In this document: positions 14,879-64,000 of the stretch, piece by piece
Position numbering within the stretch: the first letter of the stretch is position 1
Layout: each line of letters opens with the position of its first letter
Origin: Escherichia coli
Lineage (GTDB): Bacteria; Pseudomonadota; Gammaproteobacteria; Enterobacterales; Enterobacteriaceae
NCBI RefSeq assembly: GCF_003334785.1
Contig: NZ_QOWV01000008.1
Length of the DNA stretch: 64,000 bases
Reading direction: 5' to 3' (one strand)
Notes under the pieces: generated by a model
The model's input: only the letters and a program-made list of their open reading frames with translations
Told to the model about the DNA's origin: nothing
Databases searched by the model: none
Made by a program: the position numbers and the translations under genes

Positions 14879-15742
14879 TTATTCAATATTCTGAATCTGC
14901 TCGCGCATCTGCTCAATCAACACTTTCAGCTCAATCGCGGAGTTTGTCACTTCGGCATTGATAGACTTCGACGCAAGAGTGTTCGACTCGCGGTTGAACT
15001 CCTGCATCATAAAGTCCAGACGACGACCAACGGCTTCTTTTTTCTTCAGAATGTTGTAGGTCTCTTTGACATGCGCTTCGAGGCGGTCCAGTTCTTCGGC
15101 AACGTCAATTCGTTGTGCCAGCAGAACCAACTCCTGCTCCAGACGGTTGTTTTCCAACTGAACCTGAGCATCTTCCAGCTTCGCGACCAAGCGTTCACGC
15201 TGCCATTGCAGGATTTCCGGCATATGGGAGCGGACTTTGACCACTTCGGCGGTGACGCCTTCCAGACGCTGCTCGATCAATGCTTTCAGTGCCTGACCTT
15301 CGGTTTCGCGCGCGACAATAAAGTCGTCCAGCGTACCATCCAGCGCCGCGAGAATTTCAGCGGCAATGGCGTCAAGATCCTGCTCCTGGGCTGCCATCAC
15401 GCCCGGCCAGCGTAGAATATCAACCGGGTTGATTTCCCCTTCGTCACTCTGCATTTTTACCCAGTTCGCGGCAGTTACCAGCTGTTTAGCCAGTTTTTCG
15501 TTGAGGATCAGCTCACCTTGCGCGCTAACATCTGGCTCATAGCGCAGGGTACATTCCACTTTACCGCGCGTCAGGCGAGAACGAATACGCTCGCGAACGA
15601 CAGGTTCAAGGCTACGGAACTGCTCCGGCAGACGAAAGTAAGTTTCCAGATAACGCTGGTTTACCGAGCGCATTTCCCAGGTTGCGCTCCCCCATTCACC
15701 CTTGATTTCACGCCGGGCGTAGGCGGTCATACTGCGGATCAT
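14879..15742 (-). CDS. yicC: UPF0701 protein YicC
   Basis: 287 aa MIRSMTAYARREIKGEWGSATWEMRSVNQRYLE... Confidence 0.9.
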   Translation of the reverse strand: MIRSMTAYARREIKGEWGSATWEMRSVNQRYLETYFRLPEQFRSLEPVVRERIRSRLTRGKVECTLRYEPDVSAQGELILNEKLAKQLVTAANWVKMQSDEGEINPVDILRWPGVMAAQEQDLDAIAAEILAALDGTLDDFIVARETEGQALKALIEQRLEGVTAEVVKVRSHMPEILQWQRERLVAKLEDAQVQLENNRLEQELVLLAQRIDVAEELDRLEAHVKETYNILKKKEAVGRRLDFMMQEFNRESNTLASKSINAEVTNSAIELKVLIEQMREQIQNIE

Positions 15743-15868
15743 AGACGTTCCTGTTTATAAAAGGAGAGGTGGAAGGATTATAGCCATCGATGCCTTGTCA
15801 GGATAGGAATAACCGCCGGAAGTCCGTATAATGCGCAGCCACATTTGTTTCAAGCCGGAGATTTCAAT

Positions 15869-16585
15869 ATGCGTCCAGCAGGCCGTAGCAATAATCAGGT
15901 GCGTCCCGTTACCCTGACTCGTAACTATACAAAACATGCAGAAGGCTCGGTGCTGGTCGAATTTGGCGATACCAAAGTGTTGTGTACCGCCTCTATTGAA
16001 GAAGGCGTGCCGCGCTTCCTGAAAGGTCAGGGCCAGGGCTGGATCACCGCAGAGTACGGCATGCTGCCACGTTCTACCCACACCCGTAACGCTCGTGAAG
16101 CGGCGAAAGGTAAGCAGGGTGGACGCACAATGGAAATCCAGCGTCTGATCGCCCGTGCGCTTCGCGCGGCAGTAGATTTGAAAGCGCTGGGTGAGTTCAC
16201 CATTACGCTGGACTGCGACGTGCTTCAGGCTGATGGTGGCACGCGTACCGCTTCGATTACGGGTGCCTGTGTGGCGCTGGCAGATGCGCTACAGAAGCTG
16301 GTGGAAAACGGCAAGCTGAAAACCAACCCGATGAAAGGGATGGTAGCCGCGGTTTCTGTCGGGATTGTGAACGGCGAAGCGGTTTGCGATCTGGAATACG
16401 TTGAAGACTCTGCCGCAGAGACCGACATGAACGTAGTGATGACCGAAGACGGGCGCATCATTGAAGTGCAGGGGACGGCAGAAGGCGAGCCGTTCACCCA
16501 TGAAGAGCTACTCACCTTGTTGGCGCTGGCCCGAGGGGGAATCGAATCCATTGTAGCGACGCAGAAGGCGGCGCTGGCAAACTGA
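15869..16585 (+). CDS. rph: Ribonuclease PH, full-length
   Basis: 238 aa from [14 protein letters not shown] ending ...ATQKAALAN; no frameshift near the 3' end. Confidence 0.9.
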
Positions 16586-16591
16586 TTTTTA

Positions 16592-16618
16592 AGGCGACTG
16601 ATGAGTCGCTTTTTTTTG
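16592..16618 (+). terminator. pyrE attenuator (intrinsic terminator in the rph-pyrE leader)
   Basis: Hairpin ggcgact-gatg-agtcgc followed by T8, 31 bp upstream of pyrE ATG. Confidence 0.8.
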
Positions 16619-16649
16619 TCTGTAGAAAAGTAAGATGAGGAGCGAAGGC

Positions 16650-17291
16650 ATGAAACCATATCAGCGCCAGTTTATTGAATTTGCGCTTAGCAAGCAGGTG
16701 TTAAAGTTTGGCGAGTTTACGCTGAAATCCGGGCGTAAAAGCCCCTATTTCTTCAACGCCGGGCTGTTTAATACCGGGCGCGACCTGGCACTGTTAGGCC
16801 GTTTTTACGCTGAAGCATTGGTGGACTCCGGCATTGAGTTCGATCTGCTGTTTGGCCCTGCTTACAAAGGGATCCCGATTGCCACCACAACCGCCGTGGC
16901 GTTGGCGGAGCATCATGACCTGGACCTGCCGTACTGCTTTAACCGCAAAGAGGCAAAAGACCACGGTGAAGGCGGCAATCTGGTTGGTAGCGCGTTACAA
17001 GGACGCGTAATGCTGGTAGATGATGTGATCACCGCCGGAACGGCGATTCGTGAGTCGATGGAAATTATTCAGGCCAATGGCGCGACGCTTGCTGGCGTGT
17101 TGATTTCGCTCGATCGTCAGGAACGGGGGCGCGGCGAGATTTCGGCGATTCAGGAAGTTGAGCGTGATTACAACTGCAAAGTGATCTCTATCATCACCCT
17201 GAAAGATCTGATTGCTTACCTGGAAGAGAAGCCGGAAATGGCGGAACATCTGGCGGCGGTTAAGGCCTATCGCGAAGAGTTTGGCGTTTAA
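16650..17291 (+). CDS. pyrE: Orotate phosphoribosyltransferase
   Basis: 213 aa from [13 protein letters not shown]. Confidence 0.95.
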
Positions 17292-17297
17292 AGAAAC

Positions 17298-17322
17298 TCG
17301 CCGGATGAAAATTCATCCGGCG
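17298..17322. terminator. Bidirectional hairpin between convergent pyrE and slmA
   Basis: gccggatgaa-aa-ttcatccggc perfect inverted repeat. Confidence 0.5.
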
Positions 17323-23878: not shown

Positions 23879-24225
23879 AATAAATAGCTGACTTATGGAT
23901 GTGCTGGGGATTCTATGTATTTAGCACCGGGTTTGCCATTACTTTTCCTTTTTTTGACTTAATTAGCCTCTGTTTGAGCTGATCTGCCGCTAGATCTTCA
24001 TTTTTTTTGTATTTTTATGCGATTCATTGAATTTCAGCCAGGATTGCAGCTTTACATCGACAATATCTGGATTCTCGAGTATGCAAAATTTTATCTCTAT
24101 GATTTTTATAATTAAAACATATTTTGTGTATAAAAATCATTCGGGTCGGATTGCTGCGAAAGAAATGATACACTAGCGCGTCAAAGTAAGTGCGTTATCA
24201 GTATTCGGGTAGCTGTTGAGCCTGG

Positions 24226-24237
24226 GGCGGTAGCGTG
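24226..24237 (+). promoter_or_regulatory. ops element (RfaH recruitment site) in JUMPstart leader of the waaQ operon
   Basis: Exact GGCGGTAGCGTG in the long leader, about 85 bp upstream of waaQ. Confidence 0.7.
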
Positions 24238-26476: not shown

Positions 26477-27266
26477 ATTAGAAGAGCCACTTGCCACACT
26501 CTGGCGTGGTAAAGATGCCTTTGCAGAAGTTAAAAAACTGAATGGCGAGGTCTTCCGTGAACTGGAGACGCGTCGCACATTACGCTTTGAACTGGCCGGC
26601 AAAAGTTATTTCCTCAAATGGCACAAAGGGACGACCCTAAAGGAGATTATAAAAAATCTGCTCTCATTGCGGATGCCCGTTTTAGGTGCAGACAGAGAGT
26701 GGCACGCTATTCATCGACTGCATGATGTCGGTGTTGATACGATGCACGGAATAGGATTTGGTGAAAAAGGGTTAAATCCATTAACTCGCACATCATTTAT
26801 TATTACCGAAGATCTCACTCCCACAATTAGCCTTGAAGATTATTGTGCAGATTGGGCGGTCAACCCGCCTGATGTACATATTAAGCGTATGCTGATCGCG
26901 CGTGTGGCAACCATGGTGCGCAAAATGCATGCAGCAGGGATTAATCACCGTGATTGTTATATCTGCCACTTTTTACTCCATTTGCCATTTACTGGCCGGG
27001 AAGATGAATTAAAAATTTCGGTTATCGATCTGCACCGGGCACAGATACGTGCAAAAGTACCACGTCGTTGGCGGGATAAAGATTTGATTGGTTTATATTT
27101 CTCATCAATGAATATTGGTCTGACGCAGAGAGATATCTGGCGATTTATGAAGGTTTATTTTGGGATGCCTTTACGCGATATTTATAGACTTGAGATTGAT
27201 TTACTTAAAAAGGCAAGGATTAAAGCAGGAAAAATAGAAGCAAGAACAATAAGAAAAAACTTGTAA
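26469..27266 (+). CDS. waaP: LPS core heptose(I) kinase
   Basis: 265 aa; kinase-like [13 protein letters not shown]. Confidence 0.9.
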
Positions 27267-27298
27267 ATAGTATTTTATTACAAAAAGGGATTCTAAAA

Positions 27299-28279
27299 TT
27301 GTTGAAATATAGAAACTTCGTTGCTAAGAAGAAAAATTTATACCAAAACGAAGTGTCGTATGTTAAAAATTTACATATTGCACTATGCTTTGACCGTGAA
27401 TTCATAATGCCAGCGGGTGTTGCATTATATTCAATTATATCCAACAATAGACATATTAACCTTCATTTTCACCTTCTTATATCAGGCATAGAAGAAAAGG
27501 AGTGTTCAGCTTTTTACGAACTAGAAGGTCCTAATACATCAATATCTGTATATTATATAACTGATAAATTTGACATTAATCCGGATACATTAGTTCTTGG
27601 TATTCCTTTATCAACATGTTTACGTTTTTTAATCCCAGAAGTTATTGATGATAAAATAAATAAGATACTTTATCTTGACTGTGATGTCATATGTAATGGT
27701 CCTTTAGATGAACTGGTTGATTATAATTTAAATGCTGATATTGCATGTGTAATTCCAGATTCGCCAGAAATGCAAGAACGTGTAAAAAAATTAGACTATG
27801 GCATTGAGTTTATTAATTATTTTAATGCCGGGGTTATGTTTATTAATACCAGCGAATGGAAAAAAAATAATATAACACAAAAAGCGTTAGAAATGATCAA
27901 CAGTGGAAAAGTATATAGGTATGCAGATCAGGATGTGCTCAATATTTTACTTAATGGACGAGTGCATTACCTTGATAAGAAGTACAATAATAAGACAACA
28001 TTGTCAGTACGATGTGATGAAGAACAAAAAAACTTGCCCAACACAATTATAATGCATTATGTTACCCAGAATAAACCATGGTACAAAATATTTAGAGCAC
28101 AAAATTTTGATCATTATTTTTCAAATTCTCCTTGGAAGAACCATAAAAGAAATCTAGCTCCATCATCAAGTGAGATTAGGTTAAAGTCTAAAGTTTTTTG
28201 GCTAGAAGGAAAATATTGTAAAGCCATTTCTTATTATTATAAGTATTTACTTGTTAAATTATTTGGCTTAAAGATTTAG
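27299..28279 (+). CDS. GT8-family (retaining) glycosyltransferase at the waaS position of the core operon
   Basis: 326 aa; LDCDVICNG (DxD) and HYVTQNKPW motifs shared with waaO/waaJ paralogs; symbol left blank because only position, not sequence, suggests waaS. Confidence 0.55.
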   Translation: MLKYRNFVAKKKNLYQNEVSYVKNLHIALCFDREFIMPAGVALYSIISNNRHINLHFHLLISGIEEKECSAFYELEGPNTSISVYYITDKFDINPDTLVLGIPLSTCLRFLIPEVIDDKINKILYLDCDVICNGPLDELVDYNLNADIACVIPDSPEMQERVKKLDYGIEFINYFNAGVMFINTSEWKKNNITQKALEMINSGKVYRYADQDVLNILLNGRVHYLDKKYNNKTTLSVRCDEEQKNLPNTIIMHYVTQNKPWYKIFRAQNFDHYFSNSPWKNHKRNLAPSSSEIRLKSKVFWLEGKYCKAISYYYKYLLVKLFGLKI

Positions 28280-28292
28280 CTGGAATGAAATT

Positions 28293-29372
28293 ATGAAAAT
28301 AGCCTTTATTGGCGAAGCTGTTTCTGGATTTGGCGGCATGGAAACAGTCATTCGTGATGTTATTACTACCTTCAGGCAACAACATATCCAAAGTGAAATT
28401 TTTTTCTTTTGTCGTAATGACAAAATGGATAAGGGATGGCTGGAAGGTATTAAGTACTCGTGTTCATTTTCCAATATTCGCTTAGGTTTTTTGCGTCGCG
28501 CGAAACATATTCATGCTTTAAGCAAATGGCTTCATGATTATCAGCCAGATGTTGTTATTTGTATTGACGTGATCTCGTGTTTGTATGCGGCCAAAGCTCG
28601 TAAAAAATCGGGGATTGATGTACCTGTATTTTCATGGCCGCATTTTTCTTTAGATCATAAAAAACATGCCGAATATATCACCTGTGCCGACTATCATTTA
28701 GCCATCAGCTCTGGTATTAAACAGCAAATGATTAGCCGGGGTGTACCAGAATCGACAATAAACGTTATTTTTAATCCCGTTGAGGCGAAAAATTCAGTCA
28801 TTCCTGCACCCGGGGAAGGCGAAACGGCAACATTCATTTATGTTGGGCGCATGAAATTTGAAGGCCAAAAGCGCGTAAAAGATCTGCTTGATGGCTTATC
28901 ACAAGTGCAAGGTGACTGGAAACTTCATGTATTGGGAGATGGCTCCGATTTCGAAAAATGCCAGGCTTATGGTAGAGGATTAAATATTGATGATCGAATT
29001 GTCTGGTATGGTTGGCAACAACATCCCTGGAAATTAGTTCAGCAAGATATTAAAAAAGTGAGTGCATTATTACTCACGTCATCTTTTGAAGGTTTCCCAA
29101 TGACTCTACTTGAAGCCTTGTCGTGGGGGATCCCTTGTATCAGTGCAGATTGTGTCTCCGGGCCTGTTGATATCATTCAGCCTGATGTTAATGGTCATTT
29201 ATATCAACCGGGGGATATGACCGGTTTTGTTGCTCTTCTCAATAAATACATAGCCGGTGAAATTCACATCGCACATGAAAAAATTCCGGCGTCGATCGAT
29301 AAATTTTATCAACCGAAATATTACGACAGATTGCAAAAGATAATTATTTCTGTTATTTCCCGGAGGAAATAA
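28293..29372 (+). CDS. waaB: LPS core alpha-1,6-galactosyltransferase (GT4)
   Basis: 359 aa MKIAFIGEAVSGFGGMETVI...; E-x7-E motif. Confidence 0.85.
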   Translation: MKIAFIGEAVSGFGGMETVIRDVITTFRQQHIQSEIFFFCRNDKMDKGWLEGIKYSCSFSNIRLGFLRRAKHIHALSKWLHDYQPDVVICIDVISCLYAAKARKKSGIDVPVFSWPHFSLDHKKHAEYITCADYHLAISSGIKQQMISRGVPESTINVIFNPVEAKNSVIPAPGEGETATFIYVGRMKFEGQKRVKDLLDGLSQVQGDWKLHVLGDGSDFEKCQAYGRGLNIDDRIVWYGWQQHPWKLVQQDIKKVSALLLTSSFEGFPMTLLEALSWGIPCISADCVSGPVDIIQPDVNGHLYQPGDMTGFVALLNKYIAGEIHIAHEKIPASIDKFYQPKYYDRLQKIIISVISRRK

Positions 29373-30391
29373 TGCAGCAGGTTTTTTTCCAGGAGACTGA
29401 GTTTCTCAATTCGGTTATTGATTATAATCATAAAATAGAAGCAGAAAATCTTTGTCTGGATATTGCTTATGGGACTGACAAAAATTTTCTTTTTGGATGC
29501 GGAATATCGATTGCTTCAATATTAAAATATAATGAAGGAAATCAATTATGCTTTCATATTTTTACTGATTATTTCGGTGATGACGATCGCAAATATTTTG
29601 ATGCCCTGGCCAGGCAATATAAAACAAGAATTAAGATATATTTAATTAATGGTGATCGACTCCGTTCATTACCCTGCACCAAGAACTGGACTCATGCTAT
29701 TTATTTTCGTTTTGTTATCGCCGATTACTTTTTTAATAAAGCACCCAAAGTTCTTTATCTGGATGCAGATATTATTTGTCAGGGAACTATAGAACCACTT
29801 ATCAATTACACGTTTTCTGAACATACAGTCGCAATGGTTGTTACAGAAGGACAAAAAGACTGGTGGGCAAAACGTGCTCATTCGTTAGGTGTTGCTGGGA
29901 TTGCTAATGGTTACTTTAACTCCGGTTTTTTACTGATTAATACTAATCAATGGACGAATGAGCGGGTTTCTGCACGGGCCATTGCAATGTTAAGTGATCC
30001 AGAGATAGTCAAAAAAATAACACATCCTGATCAGGATGTATTAAATATGTTATTGGCAGACAAACTTGTTTATGCTGATATTAAATATAACACTCAGTTT
30101 AGTTTAAATTATCAACTAAAAGAAAGTTTTAAAAACCCAGTAACTAACGATACAGTTTTTATTCATTATATTGGTCCAACTAAACCCTGGCATGACTGGG
30201 CCTGGGATTATCCAATATCACAAGCTTTTATGGCGGCAAAAAATGCTTCACCATGGAAGGATACTGCGTTATTGAAACCGGTTAATAGTAATCAATTAAG
30301 ATACAGTGCTAAACATATGTTGAAAAAAAAGCAATATATCAAAGGATTTGGCAACTATCTTTTGTATTTTATAAAAAAGCTAAAGCATTAA
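29372..30391 (+). CDS. waaO: LPS core alpha-1,3-glucosyltransferase (GT8)
   Basis: 339 aa; LDADIICQG DxD and HYIGPTKPW motifs. Confidence 0.8.
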   Translation: MQQVFFQETEFLNSVIDYNHKIEAENLCLDIAYGTDKNFLFGCGISIASILKYNEGNQLCFHIFTDYFGDDDRKYFDALARQYKTRIKIYLINGDRLRSLPCTKNWTHAIYFRFVIADYFFNKAPKVLYLDADIICQGTIEPLINYTFSEHTVAMVVTEGQKDWWAKRAHSLGVAGIANGYFNSGFLLINTNQWTNERVSARAIAMLSDPEIVKKITHPDQDVLNMLLADKLVYADIKYNTQFSLNYQLKESFKNPVTNDTVFIHYIGPTKPWHDWAWDYPISQAFMAAKNASPWKDTALLKPVNSNQLRYSAKHMLKKKQYIKGFGNYLLYFIKKLKH

Positions 30392-30554
30392 TACTGATAA
30401 TCTATACTCTAAATAATTCGAGTTGCAGGACAAAAAGCCAGTGGCGTTTTGAGGAACGCTTGCGTTGGCCCTGAAATGCCGAGTAACTCGCCGATGCAGC
30501 ACATGCAACTTGAAGTATAACGAGTATATAAAGTAATGATATAAGGATAGCCTT

Positions 30555-31571
30555 GTGAACTCATTTCCTGCCATAGAGATAGATAAAGTTAAAGCCTGGG
30601 ATTTTAGGCTTATTGATGAAAATACTGCTGAAAGTTTAAATGTTGCCTATGGTGTCGATTCCAATTATCTTGATGGTGTAGGTGTTTCCATTACTTCAAT
30701 TGTCATTAATAATCGACATGTTAATCTTGATTTTTATATTATTGCTGATGTTTATAACGACGATTTCTTTCAAAAAGTTGAGAAACTTGCTGAGCAATAC
30801 CAATTAAGAATCACACTTTATAGAATAAATACTGATAATCTTCAGTGCCTGCCTTGTACACAAGTCTGGTCAAGAGCAATGTACTTCCGTTTATTTGCTT
30901 TTCAATTATTGGGAGTAACACTTAATCGTTTGCTTTATCTTGATGCCGATGTAGTTTGTAAGGGAAATATTAGTCAACTATTGCATTTAGAGTTTAATGG
31001 AGCGGTGGCTGCAGTAGTCAGGGATGTAGACCCAATGCAGGAAAAGGCGGTAGTCAGATTATCTGATCCTGAACTTCGGGGGCAGTATTTTAATTCTGGT
31101 GTCGTTTACTTAGACCTAAAAAAATGGACAGAAGCAAAACTAACCGAAAAAGCACTGTCTATTCTTATGAGTAAAGATAGTATTTATAAGTATCCTGACC
31201 AGGACGTTATGAATGTCCTACTAAAAGGGATGACAATATTCCTGCCACGTGAGTTCAATACTATATATACAATAAAAAGTGAGTTAAAAGATAAAACGCA
31301 TCAAAAATATAAAGAGTTGATAAAAGAGGATACTCTTCTTATTCATTATACTGGGGCCACCAAGCCGTGGCACAAATGGGCAATTTATCCATCGGTAAAA
31401 TACTATAAAATAGCTTTAGAAAGATCCCCCTGGAAAGATGACTCACCACGAGATGCAAAATCAATTATTGAATTCAAAAAAAGATATAAACATCTGTTAG
31501 TGCAACATCATTATATCTCAGGACTCATTGCAGGAGTGTGTTATCTTTGCCGAAAATATTACCGTAAATAA
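30555..31571 (+). CDS. waaJ: LPS core alpha-1,2-glucosyltransferase (GT8; WaaJ/WaaR)
   Basis: 338 aa; GTG start; LDADVVCKG and HYTGATKPW motifs. Confidence 0.8.
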   Translation: MNSFPAIEIDKVKAWDFRLIDENTAESLNVAYGVDSNYLDGVGVSITSIVINNRHVNLDFYIIADVYNDDFFQKVEKLAEQYQLRITLYRINTDNLQCLPCTQVWSRAMYFRLFAFQLLGVTLNRLLYLDADVVCKGNISQLLHLEFNGAVAAVVRDVDPMQEKAVVRLSDPELRGQYFNSGVVYLDLKKWTEAKLTEKALSILMSKDSIYKYPDQDVMNVLLKGMTIFLPREFNTIYTIKSELKDKTHQKYKELIKEDTLLIHYTGATKPWHKWAIYPSVKYYKIALERSPWKDDSPRDAKSIIEFKKRYKHLLVQHHYISGLIAGVCYLCRKYYRK

Positions 31572-31588
31572 CATTTAACTGGTTTAAC

Positions 31589-32287
31589 ATGATTCAGAAG
31601 AATAAAATCAAAGATTTAGTTGTTTTTACCGATGAAAATAACTCAAAGTATCTCAATGTATTAAATGACTTTCTTTCTTATGATATTAATATCATCAAAG
31701 TTTTTCGTTCTATAGATGATACAAAAGTCATGCTTATTGATACCGATTACGGTAAATTGATACTTAAAGTTTTTTCGCCTAAAGTAAAACGCAACGAACG
31801 TTTCTTTAAATCTCTTTTAAAGGGAGATTATTATGAACGCCTTTTTGAGCATACTCAAAAAGTGCGTAACGAGGGGCTACATTCTCTCAATGATTTTTAT
31901 TTGTTGGCAGAACGGAAAACATTACGTTTTGTCCATACTTATATCATGCTTATCGAATATATCGATGGCGTAGAGTTGTGTGATATCCCCGATATTGATG
32001 AAACTTTAAAAAATAAAATTCAACAATCAATTCGTTCATTACACGAACACGGTATGGTATCTGGTGATCCTCACCGCGGTAATTTTATTATTGAAAATGG
32101 TGAAGTACGCATTATTGATCTTTCAGGAAAACGGGCATCTGCACAACGTAAAGCGAAAGATCGTATTGATTTAGAGCGACATTATGGTATTAAGAATGAG
32201 GTTAAAGATCTCGGTTATTATCTTTTAGTTTATCGTAAAAAAATACGTAATCTTATGCGGCGTTTGAAAGGGAAGCCAGCACGATAA
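31589..32287 (+). CDS. waaY: LPS core heptose(II) kinase
   Basis: 232 aa MIQKNKIKDLVVFTDENNSKY... Confidence 0.85.
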   Translation: MIQKNKIKDLVVFTDENNSKYLNVLNDFLSYDINIIKVFRSIDDTKVMLIDTDYGKLILKVFSPKVKRNERFFKSLLKGDYYERLFEHTQKVRNEGLHSLNDFYLLAERKTLRFVHTYIMLIEYIDGVELCDIPDIDETLKNKIQQSIRSLHEHGMVSGDPHRGNFIIENGEVRIIDLSGKRASAQRKAKDRIDLERHYGIKNEVKDLGYYLLVYRKKIRNLMRRLKGKPAR

Positions 32288-32358
32288 AGTAAAAGTCTTA
32301 CATTTAAACGTCTTCGTCAGGACATTTCTATGCGGAGTTCTTATTTCACAGGTTTATC

Positions 32359-33168
32359 ATGAAGAATATTAGATACATTGACAAAAAAGATGTTGAAAAC
32401 CTGATAGAAAGTAAAACGTCTGATGATGTTATTATTTTTCTTTCCGGCCCCACATCGCAAAAAACACCATTGTCAGTGCTGCAGACAAGGGATGTTATTG
32501 CTGTCAATGGTTCTGCACAATATCTATTAAGTCATAATATTATTCCCTATATTTATGTACTTACCGATGTTCGCTTTTTACATCAACGGCGTGATGATTT
32601 TTATAAATTTAGCCAGAGAAGTCGTTATACCATCGTAAATGTTGACGTTTATGAACATGCTTCTGAAGAAGATAAGCGGTACATCCTTCAAAACTGCCTG
32701 GTACTACGTTCATTTTACCGCAGAGAAAAAGGTGGATTGATCAAGAAGATCAAGTTTAATATTTTGAGCCGAATTCATAAAGAGCTCCTGATCTCTGTAC
32801 CTTTTTCTAAAAAAGGTCGTCTGGTTGGCTTTTGCAAGGATATTAACCTCGGTTATTGTTCATGCCATACCGTTGCTTTTGCTGCAATCCAAATAGCCTA
32901 TTCGCTGAAGTATGCTCGTATTATCTGTTCAGGCCTTGATTTAACGGGTAGCTGTTCGCGTTTCTATGATGAAGATAAGAATCCTATGCCCTCAGAGTTG
33001 ATTCGGGATTTATTCAAAATTTTACCATTTTTCCGTTTTATGCGTGAAAATATAGAAGATATCAATATTTATAATTTATCCGACGATACTGCAATTCAAT
33101 ATGATATTATTCCCTATATGAAAATATCCGAAATTGAAGAGCCGTGTGTTTATGAAAAAATAAGCTAA
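32359..33168 (+). CDS. waaZ: LPS core biosynthesis protein WaaZ
   Basis: 269 aa maximum (in-frame stop at 32305 prevents a longer N-terminus). Confidence 0.75.
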   Translation: MKNIRYIDKKDVENLIESKTSDDVIIFLSGPTSQKTPLSVLQTRDVIAVNGSAQYLLSHNIIPYIYVLTDVRFLHQRRDDFYKFSQRSRYTIVNVDVYEHASEEDKRYILQNCLVLRSFYRREKGGLIKKIKFNILSRIHKELLISVPFSKKGRLVGFCKDINLGYCSCHTVAFAAIQIAYSLKYARIICSGLDLTGSCSRFYDEDKNPMPSELIRDLFKILPFFRFMRENIEDINIYNLSDDTAIQYDIIPYMKISEIEEPCVYEKIS

Positions 33169-33220
33169 TATTTTATATGTGTTTATTACGTGTTATAAAT
33201 TATATTGGAGTTGGCTAATA

Positions 33221-34363
33221 ATGATTAAAAAAATAATATTTACCGTCACACCAATATTTTCTATACCGCCAAAAGGAGCTGCAGCGGTTGAAACATGGAT
33301 TTATCAGGTCGCAAAAAGACTTTCGATTCCAGTAACTATCGCCTGTATTCGAAACGAAGGTTACCCAACCTACACAAAAGTAAATGATCACTGTGATATT
33401 CACTACATTGGTTTTAGTCGAGTCTATAAACGACTTTTCCAAAAGTGGACTCGACTTGATCCTGTGCCATATTCTCAGCGTATTTTAAATACCCAACCTA
33501 AAAACACTGATCCGAAAGACTCTGTTATTGTTATCCACAATAGCATGAAGCTGTATAAACAGATTCGTAGCAGAAGCCCTCACGCGCAGCTAGTTATGCA
33601 TCTTCATAATGCTTTCGAGCCAGGTGAGTTAGACAAAAATGCAAAGATAATTGTTCCTAGCCAGTTTCTTTTCGATTTCTATTCGGAAAAAATGCCTGAT
33701 GCAAATATTGCTATTGTGCCTAATGGTTTTTGTTCTGAATCGTATGAACAAAATAATACTGAAGATTTGAGGCAGAAACTGAACATTGATGCAAATGATA
33801 CCGTGTTATTATTTGCAGGAAGGATATCACCAGATAAAGGTTGCCTGATGCTTATGGAGGCTTTTAATCAGCTGAATAAGATACAAGATAACCTCAAACT
33901 GGTGATTGTCGGAGATCCTTTTGCCAGTAAAAAAGGCGAAAAAGCTGAATATCAGAAAAAAGTTCTGGATGCAGCGAAAGCTATTGGAGCGCAATGCATT
34001 ATGGCGGGTGGACAGCCTCCAGAGCAGATGCATAACTATTACCGTTTAGCAGATTTAGTTGTTGTTCCTTCTCAGGTAGAAGAAGCTTTTTGTATGGTAG
34101 CTGTTGAAGCGATGGCGGCAGGTAAACCAGTGCTTGCCAGTCAAAAAGGTGGAATTAGTGAGTTTGTTCTGGAAGGAATTACAGGCTATCACCTTGCAGA
34201 GCCTATGACATCTGAAAGTATTCTCGCGGATATTAAGCGCGTTTTGGCGGATGCTGACAGAGCTCAAATTGCTAAAAATGCCCGAAATTTTGTTTTCTCA
34301 AAATATAGCTGGGAACATGTTACTCAGCGTTTTGAAGCACAAATACAAGACTGGTTTGGTTAA
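33221..34363 (+). CDS. waaK: LPS outer-core GT4 glycosyltransferase, WaaK-like
   Basis: About 380 aa from MIKKIIFTVTP; E-x7-E motif; an upstream ATG at 33179 is possible. Confidence 0.7.
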   Translation: MIKKIIFTVTPIFSIPPKGAAAVETWIYQVAKRLSIPVTIACIRNEGYPTYTKVNDHCDIHYIGFSRVYKRLFQKWTRLDPVPYSQRILNTQPKNTDPKDSVIVIHNSMKLYKQIRSRSPHAQLVMHLHNAFEPGELDKNAKIIVPSQFLFDFYSEKMPDANIAIVPNGFCSESYEQNNTEDLRQKLNIDANDTVLLFAGRISPDKGCLMLMEAFNQLNKIQDNLKLVIVGDPFASKKGEKAEYQKKVLDAAKAIGAQCIMAGGQPPEQMHNYYRLADLVVVPSQVEEAFCMVAVEAMAAGKPVLASQKGGISEFVLEGITGYHLAEPMTSESILADIKRVLADADRAQIAKNARNFVFSKYSWEHVTQRFEAQIQDWFG

Positions 34364-34382
34364 AAATTATTGGATTTGAAGA

Positions 34383-34418
34383 GCCTGCCTGAACTTAATG
34401 TCAGGCAGGCTTTTTTTT
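34383..34418. terminator. Bidirectional terminator between convergent waaK and waaL
   Basis: 11-bp perfect stem gcctgcctga / tcaggcaggc followed by T8; waaL stop codon lies inside the T tract. Confidence 0.6.
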
Positions 34419-35634
34419 ATTTATTCCGCATTGCTAACAGTAAACCAACAATCAAGCCAATTGGTTTGAGATCAACTTCCTCGAAGTTACCTCGAATAAT
34501 ATAAAAGCTTACAAGCGTTAAAAATAGTAGTAATTGACCATTATAAGGAGTGACGACAACTGTTTTAAACGTTGCATTAGCTGTCTCTTTGATAATAGAG
34601 CCATACAGATAAAGTAAAGCGAGTAGTCCAGCCAAACCCGCTGCAAACCAAATTGACAAAACAACGTTGTGTGGCCCAATGGATTGCCTGAACTTCCATG
34701 ACGGAAAATCTACAACACGCTTATTATATATTGCATGGTAAATATCATCGCCGTAGCCATATCCCTTAAGAGGATTTTCCATAATTAATGTCCACGCCGT
34801 ACCTTGAGTACCATTGGTATAGCGATAAGAACTGTCGGTCTGTTGAAGTTTATAAATAAGCCTGTCTTTACCAGCATGATCACCTTTATAGGTAAATACA
34901 CCCACTGCGGCAACAGAAATAACGATGGAAGTCAGCATCAATAATTTCCACTGACGATTTAAGATTAACCATAGCAGAGTCACTATGAATACTGCCAGCC
35001 ATGCACCACGAGACAGCGTTCCTAATAGCAGAAATAAGAAAACTGCACTAAAAATTACGAATGCTATTTTATAAGAGGTTTTCTTGATAAGCCAAAGGTT
35101 TAATAATGCTGGAAACAGAAACACCATTGAATCGGAAATACTACGGTGTTCATAGGTGGAAAATGGCATTATTCCTTTATTATAATCCTGAATATAAAGA
35201 ATAAGTTCAACAAGACAACGTAAGCCAAGTCCGGTAACTAATGAGTATAGTACAATTTTACCAATGCTTTCATTATCTTCATCTTTTAATAATGCAGGTA
35301 TAAGTAAACTATAGGCCAAAAATCCTTTAAGTACCGTATTACTGAATTCTTTAAAACTGATTTTCAGATCAGGTGATATAAAAGTAGCATATAAAAGAAT
35401 GAGTGATAGTGCCAGGACACTATAAAAAAGATTATTTTTATAGAGTACTTTAAATGTTCCCGGAGCACGAGAAACTTGATAGATTACCGTAATAATCATT
35501 AGTATAGATATGATGTGTTTATAACGGGTTATACCATCAAGGAAAAAGGTTGCAATAAAGAGGAATACCAACGCTTTATTCCAGTACGGTTTCCACTTTT
35601 CTTTATTACGTAGCGCCAGCGAGGCTGTTAACAT
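34417..35634 (-). CDS. waaL: O-antigen ligase
   Basis: 405 aa polytopic membrane protein starting MLTASLALRNKEKWKPYWNKALVF. Confidence 0.85.
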   Translation of the reverse strand: MLTASLALRNKEKWKPYWNKALVFLFIATFFLDGITRYKHIISILMIITVIYQVSRAPGTFKVLYKNNLFYSVLALSLILLYATFISPDLKISFKEFSNTVLKGFLAYSLLIPALLKDEDNESIGKIVLYSLVTGLGLRCLVELILYIQDYNKGIMPFSTYEHRSISDSMVFLFPALLNLWLIKKTSYKIAFVIFSAVFLFLLLGTLSRGAWLAVFIVTLLWLILNRQWKLLMLTSIVISVAAVGVFTYKGDHAGKDRLIYKLQQTDSSYRYTNGTQGTAWTLIMENPLKGYGYGDDIYHAIYNKRVVDFPSWKFRQSIGPHNVVLSIWFAAGLAGLLALLYLYGSIIKETANATFKTVVVTPYNGQLLLFLTLVSFYIIRGNFEEVDLKPIGLIVGLLLAMRNK

Positions 35635-35672
35635 TGCTTCTCCACCATCTTAAATAATATATAACGTATTAA

Positions 35673-36629
35673 TCAGGAATTGATTTTATTAAATACCGTT
35701 TCTGCAGTCAGATGAGCAAGATCTTTATCTGGTGCCCTACAAACCACCTGATTCTTCCCATATCCGCCAATTAATCCCGGATCGGTTGGTCCATAAACCG
35801 TGATATTCGGTCGATCCAGTGCTGCAGTTAAATGACTTAACCCAGTGTCTACCGATACCACGAATTTCGCTCCGGCCAGCACACGGGCAACACCTTCCAG
35901 ACTCATCTTCGGCAATACTTCAACATAAGCAAATCCTTCCGCCAGTCGTTTCGCCCGTTTTTCCTCATGCGGCGCACCCCACGGAAGTTTAATGCGAATC
36001 CCTGAATCTGCCAGTAAACCAATCAATTCTCGCCAGTGTTCTTCCGGCCAGTGTTTATCATCACGGGTCGTCGCATGAAGAAATACGGCATATTCGCCAG
36101 CATCTGTAGGCAGGTTCGTCAGAAAATGCTGTGCGATAGCATAATCGCCCTGGGTTTGCGGTTTGCTATAGCCCAGACTTTTGGCAAAAAGTTCGCGGAT
36201 GCGTTCTACGGCGTGCTGCTGTTTTGCAATATGATGTTTACGATTGTAAAACAGGCTGGCTAAAGGTTCGCGAGCGGTTTGCCAGTCCATTCCATGCTTT
36301 ACGCCATGCGCCAGACGCGTCACCAGCGCCGCGCTTTTTACCAGCCCCTGAGCATCGATAACTGCGTCATAGTTCTCTGCTTGTAGCGCTTCACGAAACG
36401 CTTTGCGTTCAGCTTTTATGGGGGCCGAGAACCAGGCTTTACGCCAGCGACGTATTGCCACAGGAATAACTCGCTCAACGGCGGCGTGCCAGGAAGGAAT
36501 CTGTGCGAACCCTTCTTCCACCACCCAGTCAAACTTAATCCCTGGGATTGCCTGCTGGGCATCAGTGAGTGCGGGCAACGTATGGAGAACATCGCCCATC
36601 GACGATGTTTTAACGATCAAAACCCGCAT
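35673..36629 (-). CDS. waaC: LPS heptosyltransferase I
   Basis: 318 aa MRVLIVKTSSMGDVLHTLPALTDA... Confidence 0.9.
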   Translation of the reverse strand: MRVLIVKTSSMGDVLHTLPALTDAQQAIPGIKFDWVVEEGFAQIPSWHAAVERVIPVAIRRWRKAWFSAPIKAERKAFREALQAENYDAVIDAQGLVKSAALVTRLAHGVKHGMDWQTAREPLASLFYNRKHHIAKQQHAVERIRELFAKSLGYSKPQTQGDYAIAQHFLTNLPTDAGEYAVFLHATTRDDKHWPEEHWRELIGLLADSGIRIKLPWGAPHEEKRAKRLAEGFAYVEVLPKMSLEGVARVLAGAKFVVSVDTGLSHLTAALDRPNITVYGPTDPGLIGGYGKNQVVCRAPDKDLAHLTAETVFNKINS

Positions 36630-38739: not shown

Positions 38740-38952
38740 AACTGTAACCTTCGAATTGTGGAGTCAGAGACAATCTCAGACACGAATACTTCTATCATAT
38801 CACTACACGGCGCTGGCTACAGCCATTCACCGAAAGTGGTATGCCTGAGCGTGATTTATGCTTATTTTTTGACAAGTACAAATGCTTCATCTCGTATCAA
38901 CCTATGGCTTTCGGTAATATGTGCTGAAATTTGCCCAGTCTGGAGAATCGCG

Positions 38953-63338: not shown

Positions 63339-64000
63339 CTATCTTATATCACTGGGTTTTTCTGGCGTACCTTGCATATTAGAAATGGGGTGCCCAGATG
63401 GCCCATATGTTATCCAATTACCAAGGTCTTTTGTTGTTATAGCCATTAGATCCTTATTTGAATTAAGGTTCGTTGGTGCTGTTAGCACTGTATCCATTTT
63501 TAACTTACCATTAGTTCCTCGCCCCCACCACGTCCATAGCGTGTCAGGTCCTATTACATTTGTATGTAACTCTTTAGCTAATTGGCTAGCAAATGAATTT
63601 TGTCCTTTACCTGTATTACAAGAAAATAACCAAACTGTCATCCCATCTTTATAATTCCCATCAAATTTAATTAGATATGCTAGATCTTTAGCTGTCATGA
63701 TACTGCGCGTTGCGGATTCAATAGATGTGGGGGTACCATGCCCCCCGATTGTGAAAACGCCTGGGATATTAATCTCATCAGCTACAGAATGGATAAGATC
63801 ACTTTCGGGGTATAAATTTATATCAACCAAACCTTGCGGATCTACATTTATGACCGGATTCAACGGATACTGATAAAAATTCCATCCCCCCTTCAGCCCA
63901 ATCGGATCCTGAGTGATATACCGCCCCTGCAGCGGGTCATAATAGCGGTGGCGGTTGTAATACAGGCCGGACTCCTCATCATACTGCTGCCCCGGCAGGC
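63339..64000 (-). CDS. Rhs-family protein C-terminal region (core end plus variable toxin tip), 5' end beyond the window; YibJ-like orphan
   Basis: Minus-strand translation of 63864-64000 gives ...[48 protein letters not shown] in frame with the 174-aa tip. Confidence 0.7.

Follow-up and report, generated by a model that had tools for sequence, protein, structure and literature searches.

The rph-pyrE region of the window (the whole stretch of 64,000 nucleotides that was analysed) carries an intact rph gene, followed by a pyrE attenuator hairpin whose 3' arm is one C shorter than that of E. coli K-12 MG1655. The noteworthy point, as read from the sequence, is that this natural minority allele is identical to a terminator mutation that has recurred under laboratory selection. 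With high probability, this is a wild-type bicistronic operon, rph-pyrE, with coupled attenuation, in an E. coli outside K-12. The finding is real but ordinary, and consists of known biology together with a small unexplored natural variant.

The rph gene and the layout of the operon

The genes and the sites around them are the following.

15827..15832, + strand: TATAAT, possible -10 of the operon promoter, a candidate from sequence reading, 37 nt upstream of the rph ATG
15869..16585, + strand: rph, full-length RNase PH, 238 aa plus TGA (ORF and translation, TIGR01966, NCTC9087 annotation)
16478..16487, + strand: direct repeat GCAGAAGGCG, 10 nt, copy 1, with copy 2 at 16561-16570
16535..16539, + strand: G5 run, the rph-1 frameshift site, G4 in MG1655 (alignments to NC_000913.3)
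16554..16556, + strand: out-of-frame TAG, the premature stop used by rph-1 strains (MG1655 rph translation)
16637..16642, + strand: GAGGAG, probable pyrE Shine-Dalgarno, 7 nt before the ATG (sequence reading)
16650..17291, + strand: pyrE, orotate phosphoribosyltransferase, 213 aa (TIGR00336; WP_000806177.1 in NCTC9087)
17299..17322, unstranded: 10-bp GC-rich hairpin, likely operon end (minus-strand call of the terminator scan, palindrome read from the sequence)

The ORF and its translation place the rph frame from an ATG at 15869 over 717 nt to a TGA at 16583-16585. In the profile search, the product scored 380.8 bits against the NCBIfam equivalog TIGR01966 (RNase PH, cut-off 141.5), and its residues 2-236 aligned to positions 1-235 of the 236 in the profile, i.e., from end to end. 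Base-level alignment revealed GGGGG at 16535-16539 versus GGGG in MG1655 (NC_000913.3). Because MG1655 has four rather than five Gs, its frame ends at the TAG after 228 aa, and the translation of MG1655 rph as sequenced terminates with ARGESNPL*. The C-terminus is accordingly intact in the window, with 238 aa versus the 228 aa of the rph-1 product, whose five terminal residues are altered. With the G restored, K-12 RNase PH is also 238 aa long and differs from the window protein at two residues, A138 (V in K-12) and T216 (I in K-12). The window rph is therefore predicted to encode a functional RNase PH of active length. WP_001247093.1 is the rph annotation of the identical sequence in NCTC9087, where the NCBI pipeline places rph and pyrE at exactly corresponding positions.

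The first-pass annotation had claimed a full 238-aa RNase PH and the absence of the rph-1 frameshift of MG1655 and W3110. The former is borne out by the ORF, the translation and the end-to-end TIGR01966 match, and the latter by the G5 in the alignment. The alignment of 16540-16590 to MG1655 that it had proposed was run and revealed no frameshift; the actual site lies just 5' of that stretch. An antisense ORF of 144 aa at 16225-16659 was rejected, as it lies wholly opposite rph and is unannotated in the identical NCTC9087 sequence.

The two copies of GCAGAAGGCG are 83 nt apart in the window versus 82 nt in MG1655, owing to the extra G. In MG1655 this repeat pair flanks a recurrent 82-bp rph-pyrE deletion (PMC2784333), which moves the stop back toward the hairpin and restores expression (PMC2784333, PMC5933015 supplement). 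The pair that mediates the deletion exists in the window also.

The pyrE gene is intact and starts sixty-four bases 3' of rph. Its product scored 240.6 bits against TIGR00336 (cut-off 106.8) over profile positions 1-173 of 173, and the GAGGAG Shine-Dalgarno is kept in the Escherichia and Citrobacter loci. The yicC-rph intergenic region aligned as identical to that of MG1655. The operon promoter was not found by the consensus promoter scan, which did not call the TATAAT at 15827-15832, where there is no good -35. The same scan, which cannot exclude a promoter, found no sigma-70-like site in 16586-16649. The gene order is that of MG1655: yicC and dinD precede rph on the opposite strand, and slmA, dut and coaBC follow pyrE. 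In the gap where pyrE and slmA converge, a perfect 10-bp palindrome, CGCCGGATGA...TCATCCGGCG, is present at 17299-17322 and probably acts as a terminator for both genes, judging from its position and sequence.

The attenuator hairpin and its missing C

The attenuator consists of the following elements.

16583..16585, + strand: rph stop TGA, 7 nt upstream of GGCGACT
16591..16612, + strand: pyrE attenuator hairpin, AAGGCGACT / loop GATG / AGTCGCTTT (folding, terminator scan, inverted repeat I2)
16609..16610, + strand: one-C-missing junction versus MG1655 (alignments; NC_000913.3 3815809/3815810, -41/-42 from the pyrE ATG)
16610..16617, + strand: T8 run, U-tract of the intrinsic terminator (sequence reading, terminator scan)

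Between rph and pyrE, a GC-rich hairpin is followed directly by a U-run, and a U-rich spacer is seen in the sequence. The rph frame ends within one ribosome footprint of the hairpin: the TGA of the window lies 7 nt from it, versus 36 nt for the premature TAG of MG1655. The supplement of PMC5933015 gives 10 bp versus 36 bp with the hairpin start defined differently, and our distances agree with that account.

Two alignments placed a second indel in the hairpin, where the window has GGCGACTGATGAGTCGC-T8 and MG1655 has GGCGACTGATGAGTCGCC-T8. The difference is one C in the 3' arm, which reads GAGTCGC-T8 in the window versus GAGTCGCC-T8 in MG1655. Written out by element, the window has AAGGCGACT-GATG-AGTCGC-TTTTTTTT versus AAGGCGACT-GATG-AGTCGCC-TTTTTTTT in MG1655, so the canonical hairpin sequence GGCGACUGAUGAGUCGCC is not matched. 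The first-pass annotation had described the hairpin and T8 as intact. This was right as to the T8 at 16610-16617 and the presence of a hairpin, and wrong as to identity with the reference, given the missing C.

Folding indicated a Watson-Crick core of 16594-16599 with 16604-16609, extended by G16593 and U16610 as a G·U pair. The loss of this C turns a G-C pair into G·U and leaves the predicted hairpin weaker, with an energy of -11.6 kcal/mol in the window versus -14.3 kcal/mol in MG1655, a difference of about 2.7. For the core stem alone, the predicted values were -11.7 in MG1655 versus -10.0 in the window with the G·U pair and -8.4 without it. The window hairpin still clearly outperforms shuffled sequence in folding (z = -4.2, with 0 of 200 shuffles as good), and together with the T8 it was still called terminator-like by the terminator scan. 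Counting the G·U pair, the predicted stem still has 9 bp, and the T8 is unaltered.

A search of 15700-16720 against Rfam returned no match at E <= 1, and Rfam holds no family for this leader. As a side observation, AGCGAC at 16555-16560, within the 3' end of rph, could base-pair with GTCGCT at 16606-16611 in the 3' arm of the terminator (inverted repeat I1). This pairing grows from 5 to 6 bp because of the missing C, and by sequence it could be either coincidental or a weak structure that competes with the hairpin.

The identical 1-nt deletion has recurred under selection in pyrE-limited MG1655, in the hands of two laboratories. Knöppel et al. 2018 (PMC5933015) described "pyrE(G-41ΔG terminator)" in several MG1655 lineages that had evolved independently, listed the neighbouring stem-base substitution "G-42C terminator", and reported nucleotide-level parallelism across media. 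In Sandberg et al. 2016 (PMC4786092), two of six endpoints carried "Δ1 bp pyrE/rph intergenic (-41/+54)". Either description corresponds to the CC in the 3' arm of the hairpin, and deletion of either C gives the window sequence; the mutations are named as G because pyrE lies on the minus strand of the reference. The Δ1 bp and G-42C changes are annotated by the evolution authors as terminator mutations (PMC5933015), and attenuator read-through is taken to be raised, relieving the rph-1 shortage of pyrE, an effect that they call putative (PMC5933015 supplement). A limited full-text search turned up no paper that comments on natural variants of the pyrE attenuator.

Strain background and distribution of the alleles

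The intact rph had been taken to place the strain outside the MG1655 lineage. The conclusion holds, and the argument is weak, as rph+ K-12 strains exist: JM83, JM109 and XL1-Blue are rph+ (PMC11148124), and in our searches C600, S17-1 and CM13 carried K-12-like sequence at the full, unframeshifted length. Intact rph therefore excludes only carriers of rph-1, namely MG1655, W3110 and their derivatives, and not K-12 as such. That the strain is an rph+ K-12 relative of the C600 or JM83 kind would also fit the identity to MG1655 seen between yicC and rph and over the first 290 nt of rph. We nevertheless regard this as extremely improbable. The 3.2 kb around the locus contain 45 differences from MG1655, and the first 27 kb of the window are 98.0% identical to it (533 mismatches in 27,181 aligned columns), followed by a non-K-12 waa core locus. 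K-12-type sequences have V138 and I216 in RNase PH and the GCC form of the hairpin, from all of which the window differs. Neither near-identity to MG1655 across the region nor the G4 of rph-1 was found. By sequence, then, the strain is not K-12, and divergence is the stronger evidence for this. The first 50 kb are identical to NCTC9087 (NZ_LR134231.1 51154-101153), and the haplotype comprises 521 genomes that are at least 99% identical over 25 kb, five of them identical.

Several other features of the window and of related strains were observed. In the waa (LPS core) locus at 27176-35724, segments are 87-88% identical to MG1655 or unalignable. A family-8 glycosyltransferase gene (27299-28279) occupies the place of K-12 waaS, and the locus also contains genes for an N-acetylglucosaminyltransferase (33221-34363) and a divergent O-antigen ligase (34417-35634). 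A JUMPstart RNA (RF01707, 53.1 bits) at 24199-24237, upstream of rfaQ/waaQ, was the only Rfam match in the 64 kb. At 38787-38889, about 100 bp replace about 1.3 kb of MG1655 (3792615-3793939, with htrL), leaving rfaD and kbl nearly adjacent. At the window edge, the 145 bases at 63856-64000 match MG1655 3767504-3767648 collinearly, in the yibJ pseudogene that immediately follows yibA, and also MG1655 3765751-3765895 within rhsA, and represent an rhs-associated repeat. Strain DY612 (locus L033, 1-3309) has a tyrosine integrase and phage-like genes beside yicC, where the window has dinD, which suggests that an integration site adjoins yicC in some strains. PEC399 (NZ_CM168011.1 67012-69784) carries an ISApl1-family (IS30-like) transposase inside the yicC-rph-pyrE-slmA stretch and is otherwise identical to the window over the 1.7-kb query.

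The exact MG1655 72-mer across the frameshift was present in 167 of 5,356 complete E. coli genomes, and its carriers among the matches listed were laboratory K-12 derivatives (MG1655 variants, W3110, BW25113, J53 and HMS174). The unframeshifted form occurs in about 97% of complete E. coli; the genomes sampled among those without the MG1655 72-mer are one base longer. Intact rph is thus the default state of the species and not distinctive. The combination of rph-1 with the missing C was sought in the complete genomes and was found in none, all 167 rph-1 genomes having GCC.

The MG1655-type attenuator 72-mer was found in 4,581 of 5,416 E. coli genomes (84%) and the exact 71-nt attenuator region of the window in 488 of 5,425 (9%), including NCTC9087 and ML35. 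The remaining 350 or so genomes include GCC-T7 and GCC-T9 forms and a case of IS insertion. Four sampled genomes, OkiPb01684, GCEC19, TOK-001 and M25631H, have GCC-T7 on at least three haplotype backgrounds, and SCEC020026 has GCC-T9. Such T-run variants could be real slippage or homopolymer assembly errors, which assemblies do not tell apart. In 23CRST050 (about 1545-2240 of locus L026), an IS200/IS605 element follows the T-run of a GCC-T7 attenuator immediately and separates the terminator from pyrE by about 700 bp.

A sequencing or assembly error in the window could be suspected, as the missing base adjoins the T8 run, and long-read assemblies are prone to length errors at homopolymers. The change sits in a CC dinucleotide outside the T run, however, and the exact 71-nt sequence is present in 488 independent complete genomes and tracks the 25-kb haplotype shared by 521 genomes; NCTC9087, moreover, is identical to the window over 50 kb. 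An error is therefore hardly credible, and we treat the missing C as a natural allele.

This allele appears, by sequence, to travel with the 25-kb haplotype, because its 488 carriers are close in number to the 521 haplotype genomes. A search for it on other haplotypes, over a spread of 60 sampled genomes, did not find it. Four non-K-12 matches with the 321-nt span of the window, though not identical to it, were considered as candidates for recurrence and rejected, since all were GCC-T7. Two GCC genomes that were close in the 321-nt query proved to be about 1% diverged over 7 kb, and no immediate sister haplotype was found among the GCC genomes close in that query.

Across species, one genome per species was scanned with a pattern that admitted both the GC and the GCC form and kept the rest of the hairpin exact. 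The scan returned 20 loci, in Escherichia (E. albertii, E. coli E69 and Escherichia sp. E1V33), Citrobacter, Enterobacter, Leclercia, Pseudocitrobacter, Silvania and an unclassified Enterobacteriaceae genome. Every one of these loci, from eight genera, had GGCGACTGATGAGTCGCC followed by T8 or T9 with varying flanks, in a sample confined by its pattern to species in which the rest of the hairpin is the same. In each of the 20, the rph stop lies 6-7 nt upstream of the hairpin. Within this exact-hairpin scan, the sequences identify the GCC form as ancestral and the window form as derived. GC-T8 may have arisen by loss of a C from GCC-T8 or by a C-to-T change in GCC-T7; the relatives favour the deletion, because other Escherichia and non-Escherichia genomes carry GCC-T8 or GCC-T9.

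Expected regulation and comparison with known systems

In K-12, the rph promoter drives pyrE through the intercistronic terminator, and read-through needs tight coupling of rph translation with transcription, which the rph-1 frameshift abolishes by stopping the ribosomes too early (PMC2784333, PMC4166923, PMC11148124). All three papers credit the coupling and the polarity of rph-1 to Jensen 1993 and Bonekamp 1984. The mechanism is established in K-12 and is transferred to the window by sequence identity. Here, rph would yield an RNase PH of active length, and pyrE would be transcribed by read-through from the rph promoter across the hairpin and U8 intrinsic terminator. A ribosome finishing rph close behind the RNA polymerase would cover the 5' arm of the hairpin, as the rph stop is only 7 nt before it, and so prevent termination. 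Low UTP would slow the polymerase, keep the coupling close and thereby make pyrE sensitive to the pyrimidine supply. In rph-1 strains the ribosome stops 36 nt before the hairpin, resulting in high termination and low pyrE, a defect expected to be absent here. As judged from these sequence features, the strain very likely regulates pyrE by UTP-sensitive coupled attenuation.

The missing C would be expected to lower the termination efficiency somewhat and so to raise basal read-through into pyrE. On the strength of the predicted energies and of the repeated laboratory selection, we consider that it probably weakens termination. The chances that the effect would be measurable in an rph+ cell, in which ribosome coupling already limits termination, are about even. 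Weighing against an altered function, the stem still has 9 bp, the T8 is unchanged and the terminator remains canonical. The missing C could accordingly be functionally neutral, with an attenuator quantitatively like the canonical rph+ one, and "intact" would then be right in practice. Nine pairs still form via the G·U, ribosome coupling may dominate read-through in rph+ cells, the circulating T7 and T9 variants suggest that some change is tolerated, and the allele is common among human, animal and environmental isolates (488 genomes). We still hold neutrality to be rather unlikely: the same change has been selected repeatedly when pyrE limits growth, and would hardly have been without an effect on termination; GCC is invariant in 20 of 20 loci from eight genera, even though the pattern admitted both forms; and the predicted hairpin is 2.7 kcal/mol weaker.

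Weakened termination is the reading that we prefer for the hairpin itself. The further step, that the missing-C attenuator is a naturally fixed variant which relaxes the pyrimidine control of pyrE in a widespread haplotype, is somewhat doubtful and is put forward tentatively. The 488 genomes with the allele come from many hosts, which is as compatible with neutrality as with a benefit.

The intact rph predicts RNase PH activity in this strain and freedom from the pyrimidine-limitation artefact of MG1655, W3110 and BW25113. The rph status is useful to know when growth, tRNA processing or evolution experiments are compared between strains. The hairpin is conserved base for base across the eight-genera scan, roughly one in ten sequenced E. 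coli has lost one base of it, and the lost base is the one removed by laboratory selection to raise pyrE expression. If read-through is truly higher, the regulation of pyrE differs among "wild-type" E. coli, and the K-12-derived attenuator model needs a caveat for this lineage. If the allele is indeed a regulatory variant, nature and repeated laboratory evolution of MG1655 have reached the same attenuator sequence.

The closest known system is the wild-type rph+ rph-pyrE operon (Poulsen/Bonekamp/Jensen 1984; Jensen 1993), with which the window shares the gene order, an RNase PH of 238 aa, an rph stop 7 nt from the hairpin, the GAUG loop and U8 tract of the attenuator, the spacer to the pyrE Shine-Dalgarno, and pyrE itself. 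The window differs from the wild-type K-12 operon in lacking one C of the 3' arm and in having A138 and T216 in RNase PH. The rph-1 allele of MG1655 and W3110, with its truncated RNase PH and polarity on pyrE, has the same neighbours (yicC, dinD, slmA and dut), whereas the window has G5 instead of G4 and no frameshift. The laboratory-evolved MG1655 suppressor has an attenuator, GAGTCGC-T8, identical to that of the window. The suppressor emerged in rph-1 cells that were selected for more pyrE, whereas the window allele is natural and accompanies an intact rph on a diverged haplotype. A more distant likeness is that to the pyrBI leader attenuator of E. coli, in which UTP-sensitive pausing of the polymerase lets a translating ribosome block an intrinsic terminator. 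There, a dedicated short leader peptide is translated, whereas in the rph-pyrE operon a real gene, rph, provides the 'leader' with its 3' end.
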